From the NCBI GenBank assembly GCA_026683435.1, contig GCA_026683435.1_4866.1: a stretch of DNA of 64,000 nt. One strand, given 5' to 3'. Under the pieces are notes generated by a model that did not search any database, was not told where the DNA came from, and worked only from the letters and a program-made list of their open reading frames with translations. The DNA comes from a phage. Position numbers and translations under genes: made by a program. Shown here in pieces: positions 345 through 13,004 of this stretch; the first letter of the stretch is position 1; each line of letters starts with the position of its first letter.

Positions 345-1166
345 TCAGCGAAGGGCGTCGGTAGTCTTACCGTGAGAGTTAACCACGTAGACTTCGTCGC
401 CTTTATAAAACAGTTCGTACAACGCACCGGCACTGATCTGGTTATCAGGATCGTACCCAGATTCTTCTTCGATGCACATTGCGCCAATCAGTTCATCGAC
501 TGACCGGTCGCCAGGGCGAGCGCCTTTTAAAACAGTAACAACACACTCACCGTTAATCCACTGCGACTGCTCCTGGACATCAGTGAACTCGATAGATGGG
601 CCAGGCTCTAATTCGACTTGTTGCAGTTCTTCCTGAGTGTAGACAATGATCGCCATGTCGCTATCAGGAGATGGTTTGTACCAGCCTAATTTCTCTGGGG
701 GAGTACCGTAACCGATGATTTCACCACGTATGCTAGCCACAGCATCAGGTATACTGGAATTTGTGTCCAGTACCAGAACAGCATTACTTTTTTCACCCAG
801 CACATAGCTGATAAAGCCACGTCCATTGCAGTTAAACAACGCAACGTCGTCCAAATCAGGAATAACCAGATTCGGGAAAAGCTGTTTCAGGTATAAATGG
901 GCAGCTTCCTGATCTTTAAGCATTCGGGTTAGCCAACTGTAATAATCGGACGGGTGTATGGTGTTCGGATCAGGCACATCAGGGGCAACGCGTTTTAACC
1001 CCGGATTAAGGGCTAACTTTTCATCATCGACAACGATGTCGAAGCGCTCGTTCTCGAGCATTTTTAATGCCTCGCGGAATACACGAGACTTACGGTCACC
1101 GATACGAACCTTTTCATGCTCGGTAATAATGCGGTCACCATCAATTACACGTTTAACTGTAAACAT
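345..1166 (-). CDS. hypothetical protein (273 aa)
   Basis: Long ORF; AGAAGGAAG RBS upstream of ATG at 1166. Confidence 0.6.
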   Translation of the reverse strand: MFTVKRVIDGDRIITEHEKVRIGDRKSRVFREALKMLENERFDIVVDDEKLALNPGLKRVAPDVPDPNTIHPSDYYSWLTRMLKDQEAAHLYLKQLFPNLVIPDLDDVALFNCNGRGFISYVLGEKSNAVLVLDTNSSIPDAVASIRGEIIGYGTPPEKLGWYKPSPDSDMAIIVYTQEELQQVELEPGPSIEFTDVQEQSQWINGECVVTVLKGARPGDRSVDELIGAMCIEEESGYDPDNQISAGALYELFYKGDEVYVVNSHGKTTDALR

Positions 1167-1622
1167 GTTGCTTCCTTCTTACTACTATTGCTGCTTCTAT
1201 TGGTAGTCCACGACATATCCCTCGTGGGTGGGTTCGGTGTGTAACCGAATAAGTTTTTCTGTTCCCAGGGCAACGCACCAGGCTTAATTGATTTAGTTGG
1301 CAAACCAGGAACAGAAAAGGGGTATACAGACTAGGGCGCGAGGTGGCTCTGGATTGATGCGTAAGAAAAACCCAAACGGCCCTGGCCTGTAAGTTGGCCC
1401 GAAGTCACCGTGTCGGAGGACAGCCCATGCAGGTAGGCGGCAATGGACACGGTGACCGCGGAAGTGGTTCGTGTTACCCTTGACCCGTGTGTGGATACGC
1501 GTCTTATTTCGAATGCCTTCGGGATAAGGATAACACAAATAGGGCGAGCAAGTGGCAGGGATTCGAACCGTCGAAATATCCGATTATGAGTCGGGTGTTA
1601 ATTCCTCTAACTTCGCTGCTCT

Positions 1623-1691
1623 TGCTTTGACCGGTCTCGAACCGGCGACCTTCCTCAAAGAGGCTGCTCTACCTACCTGAGCTACAAAGCC
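1623..1691 (-). ncRNA. tRNA-like element, possibly a degenerate or pseudo tRNA
   Basis: Minus-strand sequence has an acceptor stem, a D-arm (GCTC/GAGC) and a good T-arm (GCCGG-TTCGAGA-CCGGT), but the anticodon arm does not fold canonically (CCTC-TTT-GAGG). Confidence 0.3.
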
Positions 1692-2452
1692 GTTGTAAGG
1701 TGCCGGTGCTTCCCGGCGTGTGTTAGTGCACTCAGCTCCCTCGGGCTTATCTGCGGCAACACGTTGCCCGGAGCACCGACATATACCACAGTAACCTCGT
1801 AAAGTCACTCTGGTATTGTTCGTTGCATACTACTAAGTTACCACGTAAACGATTTCATCACTTCCATAAATAATAATTAACCTAAATTCATTTCTGAATG
1901 CAGGTGATGGACTTCTTCTTCTGAGCCTGGCCGTAAGGTCAGGTCTTAGCGTCTCCAAGCACCACCCGCTATCACGTACATTCGTGGCGTACCGGCCGTA
2001 TGAGGTACCGCGCCTACGGTGACACACAGTCACCCTAACACTGGGAACTCAATCCCATTCGGTTATCAAATTGTGGATTTACAGGCGTAGCGTAGCGGCT
2101 TAATGGGCCGGTGCTTGCCTGTCCCCTAGGGACGGTTGTCGTGGAGACGCCAGTCTGTAAGTGGGGCCCTTGCGGGAAAACCCATCGCCTGTAAACCAAA
2201 CATGATTGAATACCCAGAACCGGACGTTGGAAATCAACATCCTGATGTACTGGAGTATTTCATGCATAAACGTGTCTCGTATCGAATGAGGTTATGACCG
2301 GTCAGATACCCAGCATCCTGTACAAGCGACCTGGTGCTTTGTGTACCTGGCTGCTACGGATTTATTGGTCTACCGTAGGTCTAAGCTACTACCGGCTCAT
2401 GCGGGACATCAACCCGCACAATCTGAGTAAGTATCACGGCTCGAATAGGGTT

Positions 2453-2470
2453 AGTGGGCCGAAGCCCACT
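2453..2470. other. CGAA-loop hairpin (gtgggc-cgaa-gcccac)
   Basis: Inverted repeat read directly; member of the recurring hairpin family; no clear T-run. Confidence 0.4.
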
Positions 2471-2472
2471 GT

Positions 2473-2715
2473 TTAGCCAGCGTTGAACGATTCATGAACG
2501 ACGGTCCCAGCAGGATAGTGCGTAGTGCCGATAAGAGTAACGGTCAGGGTAACCCCTTCATCCCAGCGCTCTTTCGGTAACCAGCGGCAGTCCATCCAAT
2601 GACCACGGTCGGGAGGAATTGCACACGCGGCTTGCTCCGTAGGAGCCGCCACGATTATGGAATCAAATTCATCATACCCGATATCGTCAGTTCGTTCTAG
2701 CAAGTACAAATTCAT
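2473..2715 (-). CDS. hypothetical small protein (~80 aa)
   Basis: ORF with GGAGA RBS before ATG at 2715 (ORF track started at an upstream TTG). Confidence 0.4.
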   Translation of the reverse strand: MNLYLLERTDDIGYDEFDSIIVAAPTEQAACAIPPDRGHWMDCRWLPKERWDEGVTLTVTLIGTTHYPAGTVVHESFNAG

Positions 2716-2769
2716 GTTGTTCTCCAACAGTTGACAAATCTGTGTCTTCTGTGTTGAACCTGAATTCGT

Positions 2770-2845
2770 TGGCTAAATGTGGCGGGGGCACGAGGTTTCG
2801 AACCTCGAACCTTCGGTTTTGGAGACCGGTGCGCTACCAATTGCG
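2770..2845 (-). tRNA. trnW: tRNA-Trp (anticodon CCA)
   Basis: Clean cloverleaf on the minus strand: acceptor GGGGGTA/TGCCCCC, D-arm GCGC-AATTGGTA-GCGC, anticodon loop CTCCAAA, T-arm CGAGG-TTCGAAA-CCTCG, discriminator G, encoded CCA. Confidence 0.85.
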
Positions 2846-2983
2846 CCATACCCCCAGAATCTTTACTCGGGTGCCATACGGATGGGAGGGGACTTCTTGC
2901 GCTGACCAAACAACGTCAAAACCGTATCCCGTAAACCCAACTGCTTTGGCTTATCCTGATTCTTCTTCGGCTTTTGAGACACG

Positions 2984-3454
2984 TTAAATCTCCTGGACTG
3001 GGCCACCCGTGTTGATATCAAACTTTGCAGCGATGCGAACAGCGTCTGCTGAACTCGCCCCTGCTGCCATTGCCCCGATTGCAAACTCGCAACCCGACCC
3101 AACCGCGACCGGTGGTTGCACAACCGCCATCCAGGGAAGTTCATCGTCTTCGTACTGGCCGCCAGTGTACACAACACCTTTGTCCGTAATCGCGATGTAC
3201 TTGAGCGTGATACCTTTGGGGAATCGGTGGTTGGACGTGAGACCGTTGTAACTCGTCAACGCTTCATGAACCGCTTGTACGCCAACCAGTTTTCCAGCGA
3301 CGCCATAAGCCACGATTTGATTACCATCCAAACGCCAGTTATCGCTGGGTTTGGCCATGAAGATTTTCTGCGTGTTCATGTCCAGGCGATAATCGCCTAA
3401 GGTCATCTGGCTGTCAGAAGCCAGGACTTTTCCGTCGAACGCTATCGTCGTCAT
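2984..3454 (-). CDS. HslV-like / proteasome beta-type Ntn-hydrolase peptidase
   Basis: Begins Met-Thr-Thr-Ile (N-terminal Thr nucleophile), has DSQMTLG and VAVGSGCEFA segments resembling HslV GDGQATLG and IAIGSGG; GAGGAAGG RBS; ATG overlaps the upstream stop (ATGA). Confidence 0.6.
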   Translation of the reverse strand: MTTIAFDGKVLASDSQMTLGDYRLDMNTQKIFMAKPSDNWRLDGNQIVAYGVAGKLVGVQAVHEALTSYNGLTSNHRFPKGITLKYIAITDKGVVYTGGQYEDDELPWMAVVQPPVAVGSGCEFAIGAMAAGASSADAVRIAAKFDINTGGPVQEI

Positions 3455-4026
3455 TGGGTCACCTTCCTCGGTGTGTACTCGAATGTCGTTTCCGTCAGGT
3501 AATCCTGGCGGATCCAAGTCAGCTCCTGGCCTTGCTCACACTTGATGTTCGTAACCAAACCGGCTTCAAGTGGTAGCTCACAGACCGAAACGATTCCGGG
3601 TTTATCACCGTCCCAATATGCGAATGCCGCAGCAGGGGTTGTTGCCCCGACGATGATTCCGGAATCGACGTAGTCTTCGGTAGCGGCGTCGCTGTACACC
3701 AGGTACAGTTTGAGCGTCGAAGGTTGTTTAACCTGAAATCCGAAATACGTCCCGGTGTTGCCTGAGGGAAATTCCCAGGAATGTCTGGCAGGTTCGGAAA
3801 CAAACTCCAAACCGGGATGGGAGTAATCTTCCCATCGGCCCATCTTCAGGACTACGCCTGCAGCGACATCCGTTGCGGCAACTGGACCGTCGTAGCAGCA
3901 CGCAACCGCTGGACGCTCTGCGCTAACCGGCCAGAAGGATTTGGCCTGCTCCTCGTTTTCGGCTAAGACAACCAAAACCGATTCTGGTACCTCGTTCCGG
4001 TAAAACCCGATGCGATACAAGTTCAT
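3451..4026 (-). CDS. hypothetical protein (191 aa), translationally coupled to the HslV-like gene
   Basis: Long ORF; its stop overlaps the downstream start. Confidence 0.55.
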   Translation of the reverse strand: MNLYRIGFYRNEVPESVLVVLAENEEQAKSFWPVSAERPAVACCYDGPVAATDVAAGVVLKMGRWEDYSHPGLEFVSEPARHSWEFPSGNTGTYFGFQVKQPSTLKLYLVYSDAATEDYVDSGIIVGATTPAAAFAYWDGDKPGIVSVCELPLEAGLVTNIKCEQGQELTWIRQDYLTETTFEYTPRKVTQ

Positions 4027-4933
4027 GGTTTAATTCTCCGTTTGGTTTATCATACCTCACGCAGAATCTGTAAATTTTAATCAGCCAGGTACTGGCGTTT
4101 CACAACGGGAGTACCCACCCCTCTCGTCTGTTCCGAGCCGTCAAGATCCGATCACCCCACTTTGGAGTTATCCCCCAAGTCTGCGGTTCTACACGCAGAC
4201 CCCTTTTCGACGCAACGCCGAATTCGAATCAGTTTTGGCCCGACGCCAGAGCGGAATCAGCGATAACTATCGGAGGTAAGTTCAACGACGTCTCTCCGCT
4301 GCCCAGTCCTCTGGCGCTGCCACGGTCAACTCGGATTTTGTCATGGGTGAGCAGTCGACTTTCTCGACACTCTCGCAAACCGAACTACGCCCGACGTAGC
4401 ACCGTCGGCAGGTCGGTTATTTACCGAGTACCTGAATGGGTGGTGATTGTCGGAATCCCCGCCGACGCTCACCGGTTCTGTTCCACGGCGAAAGTTTTCC
4501 AGAACATAATAAATCACGCAGTGTTAGATTGCGCTTTGTCGAAGACACCACGGTAGGTATTTTCGAAAAAGCGTCCTGGGTAACAATCCCAGGACTTGGA
4601 GCCCTAGCGTGCAGGGTTTAAAAGTGATTGGACCATTGGCGCGGTCAATCGCTATTCGCATATAACAACAAACTCACGTAATCAAAAAATTACCGGCTCG
4701 AGGCGTAGGCGTCCAGGAGCCGGTGAGTCACACAGCAGTGAGTCCCTCTGCGGGGATTTTCGTGGAGCTTGTCGTTGGAATAAAAATCCGTCCCCGGACG
4801 GGTTGGTATTGTGGGTCGACTTGTCAGAGTCTAACGACCAGGGAGGCGACCACCGAAGCTATGGGTTTTTGGACATCGAGTGGTGGTCTGAACACACGAT
4901 AGGGAAACCACGTAAAAAATACACGGGGTACCC

Positions 4934-5177
4934 GATCTCGGTCTTCCGTCCGATCACGATCTCTTAATAAGGATCACGCGCGCGCCCGCACGCGTTTTAA
5001 GATCTTAATATATTAATATATTTATTTATATAAATAATTATAATAATTAAATATAATACCTAAAGGTATTATTATATTTAATATTATTATATATTTTAAA
5101 AGATCCTGGAGGATACGGGTGCGCGCACGCGCACGCGTATAAGGAAAGGGTCTTCGACCCGATCCACAGGATCGATC
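4934..5177. other. GATC (Dam-site) cluster: 9 GATC in about 244 bp
   Basis: Counted directly: GATC at 4934, 4952, 4958, 4972, 5001, 5102, 5161, 5170, 5174. Confidence 0.7.
4973..5139. repeat. ~100-bp nearly pure AT palindromic core (centre near 5059-5068) flanked by alternating-CG tracts; candidate DNA unwinding element / origin
   Basis: Left flank cacgcgcgcgcccgcacgcg, right flank gtgcgcgcacgcgcacgcg; AT core with imperfect inverted symmetry around acctaaaggt. Confidence 0.6.
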
Positions 5178-5232
5178 TAAAAAACAATCTAAGTGATTGT
5201 TTTAAAAAGAAATTTTGAGAATTAGATTAAAT

Positions 5233-5252
5233 TATCCCCTAAGGGGGATTTT
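5233..5252 (+). terminator. hairpin atcccct-a-agggggat followed by TTTTAG
   Basis: Inverted repeat plus short T-run read directly. Confidence 0.35.
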
Positions 5253-11360: not shown

Positions 11361-13004
11361 TTACTCGATGTGGTGCGCCAGCATTGGCGTAGCCGCGAGG
11401 TTAAGCGTATCCGTAGGAGTGCGACGAATCCAGCGAATAACTAACGAATCGTCCAGAGCGATACGATAATCTACCGTTTGCTCATTTAACCACTCATCGA
11501 TGCTGTGGGTGTAAACCTTACCACCGACATGCACCTCAAAGTGTGTAGGCTCGGGAGCCTCAGATTCATTACGACGATCGTAGAGCGGATAAATCGGCTC
11601 GTACAACGCTTTAAGCCACTCGGCTTTAGAGGCACAACCACAACGAAGGTTCAGCGTGGAGTAGTTGACGTTAGAGTATTTGAACTCCGCCCAAATTTCA
11701 TTACCGTAGACCAGCCCATCGGGCAGGTATTCGATAAGGAAGTTGGTATTCAACTCGTTACCTGGGTTCACTAACGTGATGGCGAAAGACTGCGCCTGGA
11801 TGAATGCGCGGAATTGTGGATTTACTTTGCTGATATCCACCTGCACATTCAGACGCTGTTTCACACCCATCAATAGTGGGTCGAAAGTAGTCCCTGTGGT
11901 GTACTGGATGTTTGCGGTCGCGTCGTAGACTTGGCCGCGTGTCAGGTTGTACAGCAGGAACGACAGACGATAACCACGGTTCGCATCCAACCAACGCGGA
12001 ACCACAAACAGCTTCATGGAATAAGCACCATCGACTGTTTCGGTTACAGCGGTGTAGTCTTTGACAATTGTATCTTTAACAATGTCAGTACCACCGTAGG
12101 TTTCACCGCGAGCCAACTGATAGCTTAACTGGCAAGGTAACTCATTACCGGCGTTTGAAGCGATGTAAAACGTGTCATGTGCACCAGAGTTACGCAGACC
12201 GTTAAACTTCACACGCGAACCATCGATAGGTAGGCGTTTGGTTCCGTCGCTGTACTGGATGTCACACCACAGCGGAATAGATTCCAGCGGGATGTTAATC
12301 GGCAGCGTTAGCGTAGTACCATTGTCGTCTACCAGGAACGGTGAAACCAGTTTAATACCTAGCACAGTGCGAGATGGAGTCTCTTGCGCCATCACCAGAT
12401 TGGTCTTGATGATGTGACCGTGGGCGATCTGAACAACGTTACCGGTGTCAGAGTAAACCAGGAAAGTACACTCTTCACCGTTACTGACTTCGGCCAGACA
12501 GCTCCCAGGAATCGCTTGTTTCACCACAGTTTCTGCGTCAGCCGCACTGATAGTCTGCACCGGCAGATAGTTCTTTTTCAGAACCCCGTCTTTGTAATAA
12601 CCAGACAGGATTTCCGCAGCATCGTTTACAGATGAGCCACGCAGGATACGCACACCATCGATATCAGGACCGTTGAAAGTGACGGCATCATCGATAACCA
12701 TCGTCGGTGGAAGTTTGGTGCTGTCCACGTAGACGCGATATCTGTCAGAGCGTAGTGGGTAGTGACCATTAAGACGCCCGTCTTGGTTTGCCACACCAAC
12801 GCCACCGAACGGTTCTGTTTCCCACGACGGTACCGAATAGTTTACGCTAACCACGCGGTCAAAACCGGAGGTCATGTCGTTCACGATAAGGTCACGTGGG
12901 TTAGGTACGTAACCTGTTGGTTTGTTTGGTTCGTACAATTCACTCGGGTCCCAGACTTCGAACCCGCGATCCTTGTCGATTAATTTGGACGCAATCTTCG
13001 CCAT
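11361..13004 (-). CDS. hypothetical protein, putative virion structural protein (547 aa)
   Basis: Long ORF in the structural block between terminase and sheath. Confidence 0.55.
   Translation of the reverse strand: MAKIASKLIDKDRGFEVWDPSELYEPNKPTGYVPNPRDLIVNDMTSGFDRVVSVNYSVPSWETEPFGGVGVANQDGRLNGHYPLRSDRYRVYVDSTKLPPTMVIDDAVTFNGPDIDGVRILRGSSVNDAAEILSGYYKDGVLKKNYLPVQTISAADAETVVKQAIPGSCLAEVSNGEECTFLVYSDTGNVVQIAHGHIIKTNLVMAQETPSRTVLGIKLVSPFLVDDNGTTLTLPINIPLESIPLWCDIQYSDGTKRLPIDGSRVKFNGLRNSGAHDTFYIASNAGNELPCQLSYQLARGETYGGTDIVKDTIVKDYTAVTETVDGAYSMKLFVVPRWLDANRGYRLSFLLYNLTRGQVYDATANIQYTTGTTFDPLLMGVKQRLNVQVDISKVNPQFRAFIQAQSFAITLVNPGNELNTNFLIEYLPDGLVYGNEIWAEFKYSNVNYSTLNLRCGCASKAEWLKALYEPIYPLYDRRNESEAPEPTHFEVHVGGKVYTHSIDEWLNEQTVDYRIALDDSLVIRWIRRTPTDTLNLAATPMLAHHIE

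Follow-up and report, generated by a model that had tools for sequence, protein, structure and literature searches.

A reduced tRNA array in an SPN3US-like jumbo phage appears to retain a non-decoding tRNA-like gene within a block of conserved structured RNA

Introduction

Clusters of transfer RNA (tRNA) genes in phage genomes are usually read as codon supply or as anti-nuclease devices, and odd calls within them are dismissed as pseudogenes. The tRNA cluster of phage T4 is represented by a precursor of ~1.75 kb that contains eight tRNAs together with the species I and II RNAs, and it carries segB, whose product has the T-loop motif GGTTCRANTCC as its recognition site and causes flanking markers to be co-converted (PMC2330249). 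In the giant phage 201phi2-1, a small RNA derived from a 5′ untranslated region lies immediately upstream of a tRNA (PMC11512511), and a 2026 review of jumbo phages describes phage tRNAs as a means to counter anticodon nucleases (PMC13282480). Pseudo-tRNA calls are common in jumbo-phage genome papers and have mostly never been examined. Here we analyse a 1.3-kb region (positions 1167-2470) within a 64,000-nucleotide stretch of phage DNA (GenBank assembly GCA_026683435.1, contig GCA_026683435.1_4866.1; hereafter the window), which contains two tandem tRNA-like genes, TL1 and TL2, a structured RNA with an embedded open reading frame (ORF), and a structured trailer.

Over positions 1100-2900 the window best matches Salmonella phage SPLA3 (98.7%) and 41 phage records are matched in all, a number that rises to 59 records, Erwinia jumbo phages among them, in a more sensitive search. 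With 96-99% identity to SPN3US-like phages, the window comes from an SPN3US-like jumbo phage (Seoulvirus). All genes around the region lie on the minus strand and for this reason our description follows that strand 5′ to 3′, with coordinates decreasing. The interpretation that we favour, and that we consider probable though by no means assured, is that the region is a reduced stable-RNA operon in which TL1 has been kept as a non-decoding tRNA mimic and TL2 is scarred.

Results

TL1 combines a complete tRNA body with a collapsed anticodon arm. When the whole window was searched against all 4227 Rfam families, TL1 scored above the gathering score of 29 for the tRNA family (Table 1; E = 3.6e-4), and its alignment to the model covers the acceptor, D and T arms in full and has a 4-nt deletion in the anticodon loop; no tmRNA family matched. 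Base pairs were read directly from the sequence (GGCUUUG UA GCUC AGGUAGGUA GAGC AG CCUC UUU GAGG A AGGUC GCCGG UUCGAGA CCGGU CAAAGCA). The acceptor stem (1685-1691 with 1623-1629, GGCUUUG/CAAAGCA) consists of six Watson-Crick pairs and a G1.A72 mismatch, the D stem (1679-1682 with 1666-1669) reads GCUC-AGGUAGGUA-GAGC, the T stem (1642-1646 with 1630-1634) reads GCCGG-UUCGAGA-CCGGU, and nucleotides are present at the standard tRNA tertiary-contact positions (U8, A14, G15-C48, G18G19 and U54-A58). In place of a canonical anticodon arm, with its 5-bp stem, 7-nt loop and U33, TL1 has a 4-bp stem (1660-1663 with 1653-1656) closed by a triloop (1657-1659). This arm, CCUC-UUU-GAGG at 1653-1663, agrees with the initial annotation, which had described an element at 1623-1691 possessing acceptor, D and T arms and a collapsed anticodon arm. 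TL1 encodes no CCA and its 3′ trailer is AAG.

TL1 is found in 34 phage records (SPN3US-like, Seoulvirus) at an identity of at least 94.7% and a coverage of at least 80%. Among 14 distinct copies only five positions vary, all of them unpaired, and the stems are constant: position 27 is G or A, two variable sites lie in the triloop (UUU, UUC or AUC), and the T loop and the D loop contain one each. Read as an anticodon, this loop would specify Lys, Glu or Asp in phages that are ~97% identical, which argues that it does not decode. A genuine decoding tRNA, operating either through a small intron in copies of the SPAsTU and Asesino type or through an abnormal anticodon loop, is nonetheless what some annotations would imply. 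With introns allowed, ARAGORN fits a 32-nt intron into the SPAsTU copy, read as tRNA-Lys(ctt), and a 48-nt intron into the Asesino element, read as tRNA-Arg, and depositors have labelled such elements tRNA-Asp, tRNA-Ile or tRNA-OTHER. The window copy, however, has three loop nucleotides and thus nothing to splice, the forced models require C33 rather than U33, a stem of two pairs or an intron at a non-canonical site, and the tools disagree on the identity of one and the same element. For TL1 itself, ARAGORN makes no call at default settings and at an 80% threshold returns tRNA-Lys(ttt) with a 2-bp anticodon stem and C33; the depositors' labels are tRNA-OTHER in the SPN3US RefSeq record and tRNA-Asp in Proteus phage 7. 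The initial annotation had allowed for intact tRNAs in a different register, and with the intron and lowered-threshold options only forced models of inconsistent identity were obtained, so that none of the other registers yields an intact tRNA. We regard a decoding function for TL1 as most improbable.

The TL1 design recurs in more distant phages. In SPAsTU the arm takes the form CCUCC-[39 nt]-GGAGG, in which the 39 nt contain a GNRA-capped CCAC-GAAA-GUGG hairpin, the other arms are identical to those of TL1, and the copy folds as an extended hairpin with a z-score of -3.5. A metagenomic homolog (L018) scores 42.4 bits and has a 6-nt loop, and its acceptor, GGCUCCA/UGGAGC as compared to GGCUUUG/CAAAGC, differs by three double changes that preserve pairing. 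The same slot in pEa29, Caitlin and phiEaH2 is occupied by compact tRNA-like elements with loops of 6, 7 and 4 nt, respectively. The G1.A72 mismatch, the 3′ AAG and the immediate tandem with a tRNA(CAU) are common to the TL1-slot elements across genera. From these data we conclude that TL1 is, as far as its sequence can tell, a selected tRNA mimic that would be unable to decode. The initial annotation had offered a tRNA-derived structured RNA as one of two options, and TL1, with constant stems and a non-decoding arm that differs from lineage to lineage, fits that description.

No canonical tRNA could be named as the parent of TL1, as BLAST similarity is generic at 73-78% and extends over many isotypes (Met, Thr, Gly, Asp and Ala at 75-78%). 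A separate 120-nt tRNA-like element was seen in Asesino (L009:298-418), in phiEaH2 (L013, ~3440-3560) and at one further locus (L020). Its acceptor, D and T arms are kept and a ~65-nt insert replaces the anticodon arm; it is annotated as tRNA-Ile(aat), and ARAGORN with introns allowed reads it as tRNA-Arg(acg) with a 48-nt intron. This element gives the array a second family of tRNA mimics that lack an anticodon.

Phage tRNAs can counter anticodon nucleases, and their use as such counter-measures raises the possibility that TL1 is an anti-defence decoy, a tRNA-derived, non-cleavable molecule that titrates a host nuclease or modifier directed at tRNA, or another tRNA-binding protein. The tRNA body of TL1, with all of its tertiary-contact nucleotides and no anticodon loop, would suit such a role, as would the relaxed ARAGORN calls of tRNA-Lys(ttt) for the window and Lys(ctt) with an intron in SPAsTU. 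Known anticodon nucleases, by contrast, recognise the anticodon loop, which TL1 lacks; the canonical tRNA closest to TL1 is not identifiable; and the apparent Lys identity is not conserved, since the loop reads UUU, UUC or AUC across strains. We also know of no binding partner of TL1, which we count against a decoy. On balance we find this explanation improbable, and we continue to favour TL1 as a mimic retained within a reduced stable-RNA operon.

Directly downstream of TL1, after an invariant AAG spacer, lies TL2 (AGCAGCG AA GUUA GAGGAAU UAAC A CCCGA CUCAUAA UCGGA UAUUUC GACGG UUCGAAU CCCUG CCACUUGCUCGCC), whose orthologs in Caitlin, Asesino and phiEaH2 are tRNA(CAU) genes called tRNA-Met by ARAGORN. 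The D stem is GUUA/UAAC and the anticodon arm (1579-1595, loop CUCAUAA) is intact, identical to and syntenic with that of the pEa29, phiEaH2 and L018 copies. In the window, the T stem (1568-1572 with 1556-1560, GACGG/CCCUG) pairs at three of five positions and the acceptor at five to six, with a bulge. The earlier observation of an adjacent hairpin resembling a CAT anticodon arm and lacking a pairing T stem was thus accurate, the hairpin being CCCGA-CUCAUAA-UCGGA. The window copy has no Rfam tRNA match even at E <= 10; its orthologs score 30.6 bits in SPN3US, 31.9 in MET_P1, 31.3 in SPAsTU and 47.6 in Caitlin. ARAGORN makes no call for TL2 by default and, with thresholds at 80%, gives tRNA-Met(cat) with aberrant arms.

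An alignment of the TL2 family cloverleaf across ten lineages, the window allele included, has 92.3% of its cells paired as compared to 25-45% in slid controls, and 11 pairs changed on both sides as compared to 1-2; none of 500 shuffles matched the observed values (1/500 for pair types). T stems elsewhere in the family are paired (GACGG/CCGUC in SPN3US, GCGGG/CCCGU in MET_P1 and GCAGG/CCUGU in SPAsTU), and the unpaired T-stem cells of the alignment derive solely from the allele of the window and phage 1252. In six of the ten lineages, a conserved one-nucleotide bulge interrupts the 3′ acceptor strand, and the family as a whole has a universal C27.A43 mismatch and no U8. This tRNA(CAU) is unusual yet structurally selected, and the window copy is probably non-functional.

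The lesion in the window copy consists of CCCUGCCACUUGCUCGCCCU directly after GGUUCGAAUCC and is common to phage 1252 only. It starts directly after GGTTCGAATCC; the flanking allele reads CCCUGCCAC and continues. The window and phage 1252 have the 3′ half of TL2, CCCUGCCACUUGCUCGCC, in common. In phage 1252 (L004:1948-2487), an HNH cassette is inserted exactly after the deviant allele, at the 3′ edge of TL2, and its 179-aa ORF matches Pfam HNH_3 (25.3 bits) and PHROG 59 (E = 5e-33). The same cassette follows the CAU element of a metagenomic genome (L012, ~11640-12200) at the same junction; at the TL2 junction of the window the HNH ORF is absent. Because the allele is shared with phage 1252, the cassette is adjacent to it there and SegB provides a precedent, we infer that the window lesion is a homing-associated co-conversion tract, and that the window shows the site either before the cassette was inserted or after it was lost. 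In L012, the variable region of the tRNA(CAU)-like gene also contains an insertion.

The slot occupied by TL1 and TL2 holds 6-11 canonical tRNAs in relatives, including SPAsTU, Caitlin, Asesino, phiEaH2 and metagenomic genomes. The order is Tyr, Glu, Asp, Ile, Gln, TL1, TL2, Asn in SPAsTU and Tyr, Glu, Asp, Ser, a compact tRNA-like element, Met(CAU), Asn in Caitlin, and there are up to 11 tRNAs in Asesino, phiEaH2 and the metagenomic genomes. Among closer relatives, Proteus phage 7 is annotated with tRNA-Asp and tRNA-Ile, MET_P1_082_240 has a real tRNA-Asn and phage 1252 the 179-aa ORF. Mapping by BLAST arranges these genomes as a deletion series: the array is complete in SPAsTU; a 257-nt module, TL1, TL2 and tRNA-Asn are left in MET_P1; Proteus phage 7 and the SPFM and SPLA5c phages have the 257-nt module, TL1 and TL2; and SPN3US and the window have TL1 and TL2 only. 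The module is flanked on both sides by ACAATGG, which suggests that it was lost by recombination between short repeats.

The 257-nt module itself (L003:2177-2433 in MET_P1_082_240; also L002, L004, L005:2134-2265 and L007:1190-1300) starts with an RNA of ~85 nt, GGGAGCG...CGUUCCC-CCA, which is closed by a 7-bp terminal stem and has its CCA encoded; of its three internal hairpins, one covaries between lineages (GAGUGA/UCACUC as compared to GACAUG/CAUGUC). It looks like another stable RNA of the tRNA operon.

These data bear on whether TL1 and TL2 are simply dead pseudogenes left by neutral decay, persisting because the lineage is young or because they lie between constrained RNAs. The canonical tRNAs of the array have indeed been lost in this lineage, the T stem of the window TL2 is broken and the gene has no Rfam match, and Seoulvirus genomes are 96-99% identical, which leaves little time for decay. 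Against this, diverged lineages keep a non-decoding element of the TL1 type in the slot, with compensatory acceptor changes and invariant G1.A72 and AAG; SPAsTU holds TL1 beside five canonical tRNAs, so that TL1 is older than the collapse of the array; the TL2 family covaries strongly; and the deletions took canonical tRNAs and spared exactly TL1 and TL2 in 34 records. We therefore judge neutral decay of both genes unlikely, though it retains some weight. The initial annotation's suggestion of decayed tRNA genes is correct at the level of the array, which has shrunk, and for the damaged TL2 of the window; TL1 is not simply decaying.

Upstream of TL1 lies another conserved RNA. We aligned 15 distinct lineages from GenBank, IMG/VR and metagenomes, for which RNAalifold predicts 75 pairs, 34 with compensatory changes, in an RNA of ~520 nt. 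Of 69 pairs counted, 96.5% of cells are paired as compared to 32-44% in slid controls, 35 pairs are changed on both sides (4-13 in controls), as are 154 cells (6-20 in controls), and 0/500 shuffles match the observed values (4/500 for pair types). The 5′ domain comprises H1 (2421-2397, with the conserved loop UUGAUGU), H2 (2378-2354) and H3/H4 (2348-2304); in H1-H4, compensatory double changes affect 20 of 26 pairs, and pairing is kept in 89-100% of cells. In the 3′ domain, the 7-nt conserved loop of H5/6 (2115-2089) presents the UAA stop codon of the embedded ORF, and H7 (2057-2042), H8/9 (2033-2019) and a variable hairpin are followed by the long stem H10/H11 (1973-1896) with its invariant purine-rich internal loop GGAGRCG/GAAGAAG. 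No other part of the region is conserved as widely as the segment 1896-2133, whose identity is 70-80% in Machinavirus and Erskinevirus phages. In five lineages, 3-12 nt separate the end of the RNA from the array's first tRNA, and we therefore refer to it as the leader of the tRNA operon.

The leader RNA is single-copy in the window, and a permissive cmscan of positions 1000-3100 found no Rfam family for it at E <= 10, GOLLD, ROOL and the group I intron included. A pattern scan of viral sequences returned 11 loci, all in the same clade, and a metagenome scan returned nine true matches and eight chance matches in unrelated coding DNA. Eleven further matches in a scan of 185,579 genomes all fall in unrelated, mostly high-GC (guanine-cytosine) bacteria and are presumed to be chance matches. 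The leader RNA thus appears to be confined to one clade of enterobacterial jumbo phages. Within it, the hairpin GGCGCGGUACCUCAUACGGCCGGUACGCC (1987-2018, minus strand) weakly matches the Rfam L17-leader (22 bits); it is near-identical in the window, pSal-SNUABM-04, Asesino and L012, while unrelated hairpins stand at this place in SPAsTU, pEa29, Caitlin and Machina, and it behaves as an exchangeable module within the conserved RNA.

Between helix groups H1-H4 and H5-H11 the leader RNA contains a 55-codon ORF that is open in 15 of 15 lineages (55-69 codons) and always has the same UAA stop. Differences by codon position are 107/62/133 in its N-terminal half and 39/26/38 in its C-terminal half, the latter overlapping covarying RNA hairpins. 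In the N-terminal half, close pairs differ synonymously only, there is a change from CGG to AGA relative to SPAsTU, and indels come in threes. The ORF matches phrog_26199, of unknown function, at E = 1e-4 in the window and 3e-45 for the Erwinia-phage homolog, and by tblastn it is present yet unannotated in every Seoulvirus record. Its N-terminal half appears to evolve like a protein and the ORF looks translated. The initial annotation had called the region ORF-poor, a statement that holds insofar as no ORF exceeds 81 codons and misses this conserved 55-codon ORF (2267-2100). Most of the 1.3 kb, which the initial annotation did not describe, consists of other conserved structured RNA and a small gene.

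One could ask whether the region is instead ordinary protein-coding DNA with missed genes, its RNA structures being incidental. One real small ORF had been overlooked, and some depositors have annotated short ORFs here (in SPN3US gp263, in Lh1B two). No frame other than that of the 55-codon ORF, however, is open across lineages, gp263 is antisense to TL1 and TL2 and has 48 codons in the window, and indels outside the ORF are not multiples of three; the 35 compensated pairs, matched by 0/500 shuffles, argue likewise. We consider this explanation hardly tenable. At the gp263 locus of SPN3US (window 1443-1589, plus strand), the annotated product is a 78-aa hypothetical protein (VOG9117) that runs antisense across TL2 and TL1; gp263 is probably a spurious gene call.

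The array is followed by a structured trailer, module D, for which RNAalifold predicts 44 pairs in five lineages, 14 with compensatory changes. It consists of a ~15-bp stem formed by UUUGUGUUAUCCUU and AAGGGUAACACGAA (1540-1467) and a 12-bp hairpin (1462-1398) that caps a conserved 25-nt loop, AUUGCCGCCUACCUGCAUGGGCUGU. In every lineage, the array's last tRNA is followed by the first strand of this trailer, UUUGUGUUA.

The remaining features are listed with the main elements in Table 1. The tRNA-Trp gene had been described as the only canonical cloverleaf, and ARAGORN does call a single tRNA in the 64 kb; its position had been given as 2770-2845 and is off by 10. Between the tRNA-Trp gene and the region lies an 84-aa gene whose divergence from SPAsTU and pEa29 is of the coding type and whose 3′ hairpin is conserved. 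Sigma-70-like sites are no more numerous in the region than in shuffles, and the relevance of the weak spacer promoter match is uncertain because SPN3US-like phages are transcribed by their own RNA polymerases. Module C, which ends in GCACCGGCACCUUACAACG, is kept within Seoulvirus and has few substitutions among close relatives.

Table 1. Features of the region and its immediate surroundings, in minus-strand order.
Feature	Position	Strand	Basis and remarks
tRNA-Trp(CCA), canonical	2780..2855	-	ARAGORN; Rfam tRNA 65.6 bits; upstream neighbour, outside the studied span
84-aa protein gene, phrog_5444, unknown function	2473..2727	-	ORF list; PHROGs E = 2e-36
Stable hairpin GUGGGC-UUCG-GCCCAC after the 84-aa gene	2454-2469	-	Conserved relative to SPAsTU and pEa29
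Structured leader, 5′ domain of the small-ORF RNA	2304..2421	-	RNAalifold and pair counts, 15 lineages
Unannotated 55-codon ORF, MHEILQYIRMLISNVRFWVFNHVWFTGDGFSRKGPTYRLASPRQPSLGDRQAPAH	2100..2267	-	Conservation; codon-position differences
Structured 3′ domain	1896..2115	-	Covariation; conservation
AT-rich spacer with sigma-70-like promoter match TTCAGA-17-TATTAT	1870..1898	-	Consensus scan, 9/12 matches
Module C, conserved, non-coding, directly 5′ of TL1	1692..1850	-	Three-way alignment with SPAsTU and pEa29
TL1, predicted non-decoding tRNA-like gene	1622..1691	-	Rfam tRNA 37.1 bits
TL2, damaged tRNA(CAU) ortholog	1541..1620	-	Homology; family cloverleaf covariation
Module D, structured array trailer	1398..1540	-	RNAalifold, 5 lineages
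Non-coding leader of the downstream 273-aa gene (345-1166), partly conserved	1167..1397	-	Alignment; ORF list

Across 11 close genomes, 1-14 sites per 100 nt vary in the non-coding block as compared to 24-56 in the flanking protein genes. The flanking genes, encoding a 273-aa phrog_17697 protein (600-1000) and an HslV-like peptidase (2700-3400), are thus far more variable than the block between them, which suggests allele replacement or mosaicism. Further upstream, positions 4800-5250 form a sharp AT-rich trough of 32-37% GC. Both the best promoter-like matches (TTTAAA-18-TATAAT) and several minus-strand hairpins that resemble terminators lie in this trough, which is likely to be a transcription-unit boundary upstream of the gene block.

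Several known RNAs were considered as identities for parts of the region and rejected. A tmRNA, or a tmRNA-like reading of the small ORF, finds no ARAGORN tmRNA call and no match to a family of clan CL00001. The Y RNA-like YrlA family (RF02553, gathering score 69 bits) reaches only 20-26 bits, over true tRNAs in relatives, and nothing in the window. Motifs of RNase P RNA were noticed by eye (GAAGAAGUCC and ACAG...CCGGC) and dismissed because their order is reversed and no Rfam match exists, and a group I intron was dismissed because the flanking genes differ between lineages and no model matches. Searches of the window and 13 loci at gathering and permissive thresholds found nothing in Rfam beyond tRNA; matches to mascRNA, Plastid-ycf2, L17-leader and YrlA stay below threshold, and resemblance to tRNAs or to hairpins accounts for them.

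Discussion

The arrangement described above would be explained if SPN3US-, Machina- and Asesino-like jumbo phages have in common a co-transcribed stable-RNA operon, whose full version runs from a structured RNA with a small ORF through 6-11 tRNAs to a structured trailer. The array would end in a fixed trio of tRNA-like element, AAG spacer and tRNA(CAU), followed by tRNA-Asn. Stepwise deletion of the canonical tRNAs, at least once between short ACAATGG repeats, would have left the leader, TL1, TL2 and the trailer. TL1 would most likely be excised from the precursor in the manner of a tRNA, by RNase P and 3′ trimming, and may act through its acceptor, T and D body, either as a processing handle that sets where the flanking RNAs end or as the ligand of a tRNA-binding factor. 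TL2 would be a bulged-acceptor tRNA(CAU) that is structurally selected in most relatives, with a co-conversion scar in the window copy. The single transcript, the punctuation by RNase P and the role of the TL1 body are proposed from homology, structure, covariation, array reduction and conservation of the ORF, together with the T4 precedent.

A number of points weigh against this proposal. The conservation of TL1 comes from about three independent lineages, the Seoulvirus genomes differing little from one another, and conservation is unusually high over the entire non-coding block; for both reasons the lack of stem changes, (30/70)^5 or ~0.014, is weak evidence when taken alone. As a single sequence TL1 does not fold exceptionally well (z = -1.7), and an alternative D/anticodon hairpin competes with its cloverleaf. 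A processing handle is not obviously needed, because TL2 or adjacent structures could supply the cleavage sites. The transcription unit, the RNA ends and CCA addition are all proposed at the level of sequence, and the putative scar in TL2 is read solely from the shared allele and from the adjacency of the cassette in another genome.

It is possible, although we advance it only tentatively, that nucleus-forming enterobacterial jumbo phages have an undescribed RNA system at the head of a tRNA operon, with an RNA-based function apart from codon supply. Its parts would be the ~520-nt multi-helix RNA, which would double as the mRNA of a 55-69-aa protein and place the stop codon in a hairpin loop, and the tRNA mimics with the bulged tRNA(CAU). 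If this is true, the retained parts might control the processing or export of tRNA and mRNA, or neutralise host defences directed at tRNA. The natural deletion series reveals what this lineage kept, namely two tRNA-shaped genes, about 1 kb of covarying RNA and a hidden small gene. As SPN3US is genetically tractable through amber-mutant genetics, the role of the mimic, the leader RNA with its protein as a unit, and the remodelling of tRNA genes by homing can all be tested; the leader RNA with its small ORF is the part most likely to repay experiments. For annotation, the consequence is that the labels tRNA-Asp, tRNA-Ile and gp263 are unreliable at this locus and that all Seoulvirus records lack a conserved small gene.

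Comparison with known systems

Part of what we describe was already known, in that TL1 is flagged tRNA-OTHER in RefSeq and pseudo-tRNAs are commonplace in jumbo phages. In the literature we found no description of the conserved non-decoding design of TL1 or of the bulged tRNA(CAU) in tandem with it, nor of the trailer or the ORF-bearing leader RNA.

Compared by organisation alone, the locus resembles the T4 cluster, a polycistronic precursor with tRNAs, non-tRNA stable RNAs, small ORFs and a homing endonuclease (PMC2330249). In both, a homing endonuclease is associated with a tRNA gene, here as the HNH cassette at the 3′ edge of TL2 in phage 1252. The endonuclease is, however, of the GIY-YIG type in T4 and HNH here, the canonical array tRNAs are gone in the window, and a leader RNA with an embedded ORF has no described counterpart in T4.

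GOLLD and ROOL are likewise long, conserved, covarying RNAs beside phage tRNA genes. The leader RNA differs from them in that it has no Rfam match, holds a translated-looking ORF and belongs to one clade of enterobacterial jumbo phages. The mascRNA of MALAT1 (RF01684) offers a further likeness, a tRNA-shaped module whose anticodon arm is degenerate and which lies just 3′ of a long structured RNA; by analogy, an RNase P cut would free a small RNA and also form the 3′ terminus of the RNA upstream. That system is eukaryotic, and the Rfam mascRNA model misses TL1 and gives weak, sub-threshold matches on the true tRNA-Glu genes of relatives. Finally, pseudo-tRNA and tRNA-Other genes resemble TL1 in scoring as tRNA while lacking a usable anticodon. 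TL1 differs from them in that its shape is conserved across lineages, its arm is free to vary or be extended, and it is fixed beside a tRNA(CAU) partner.

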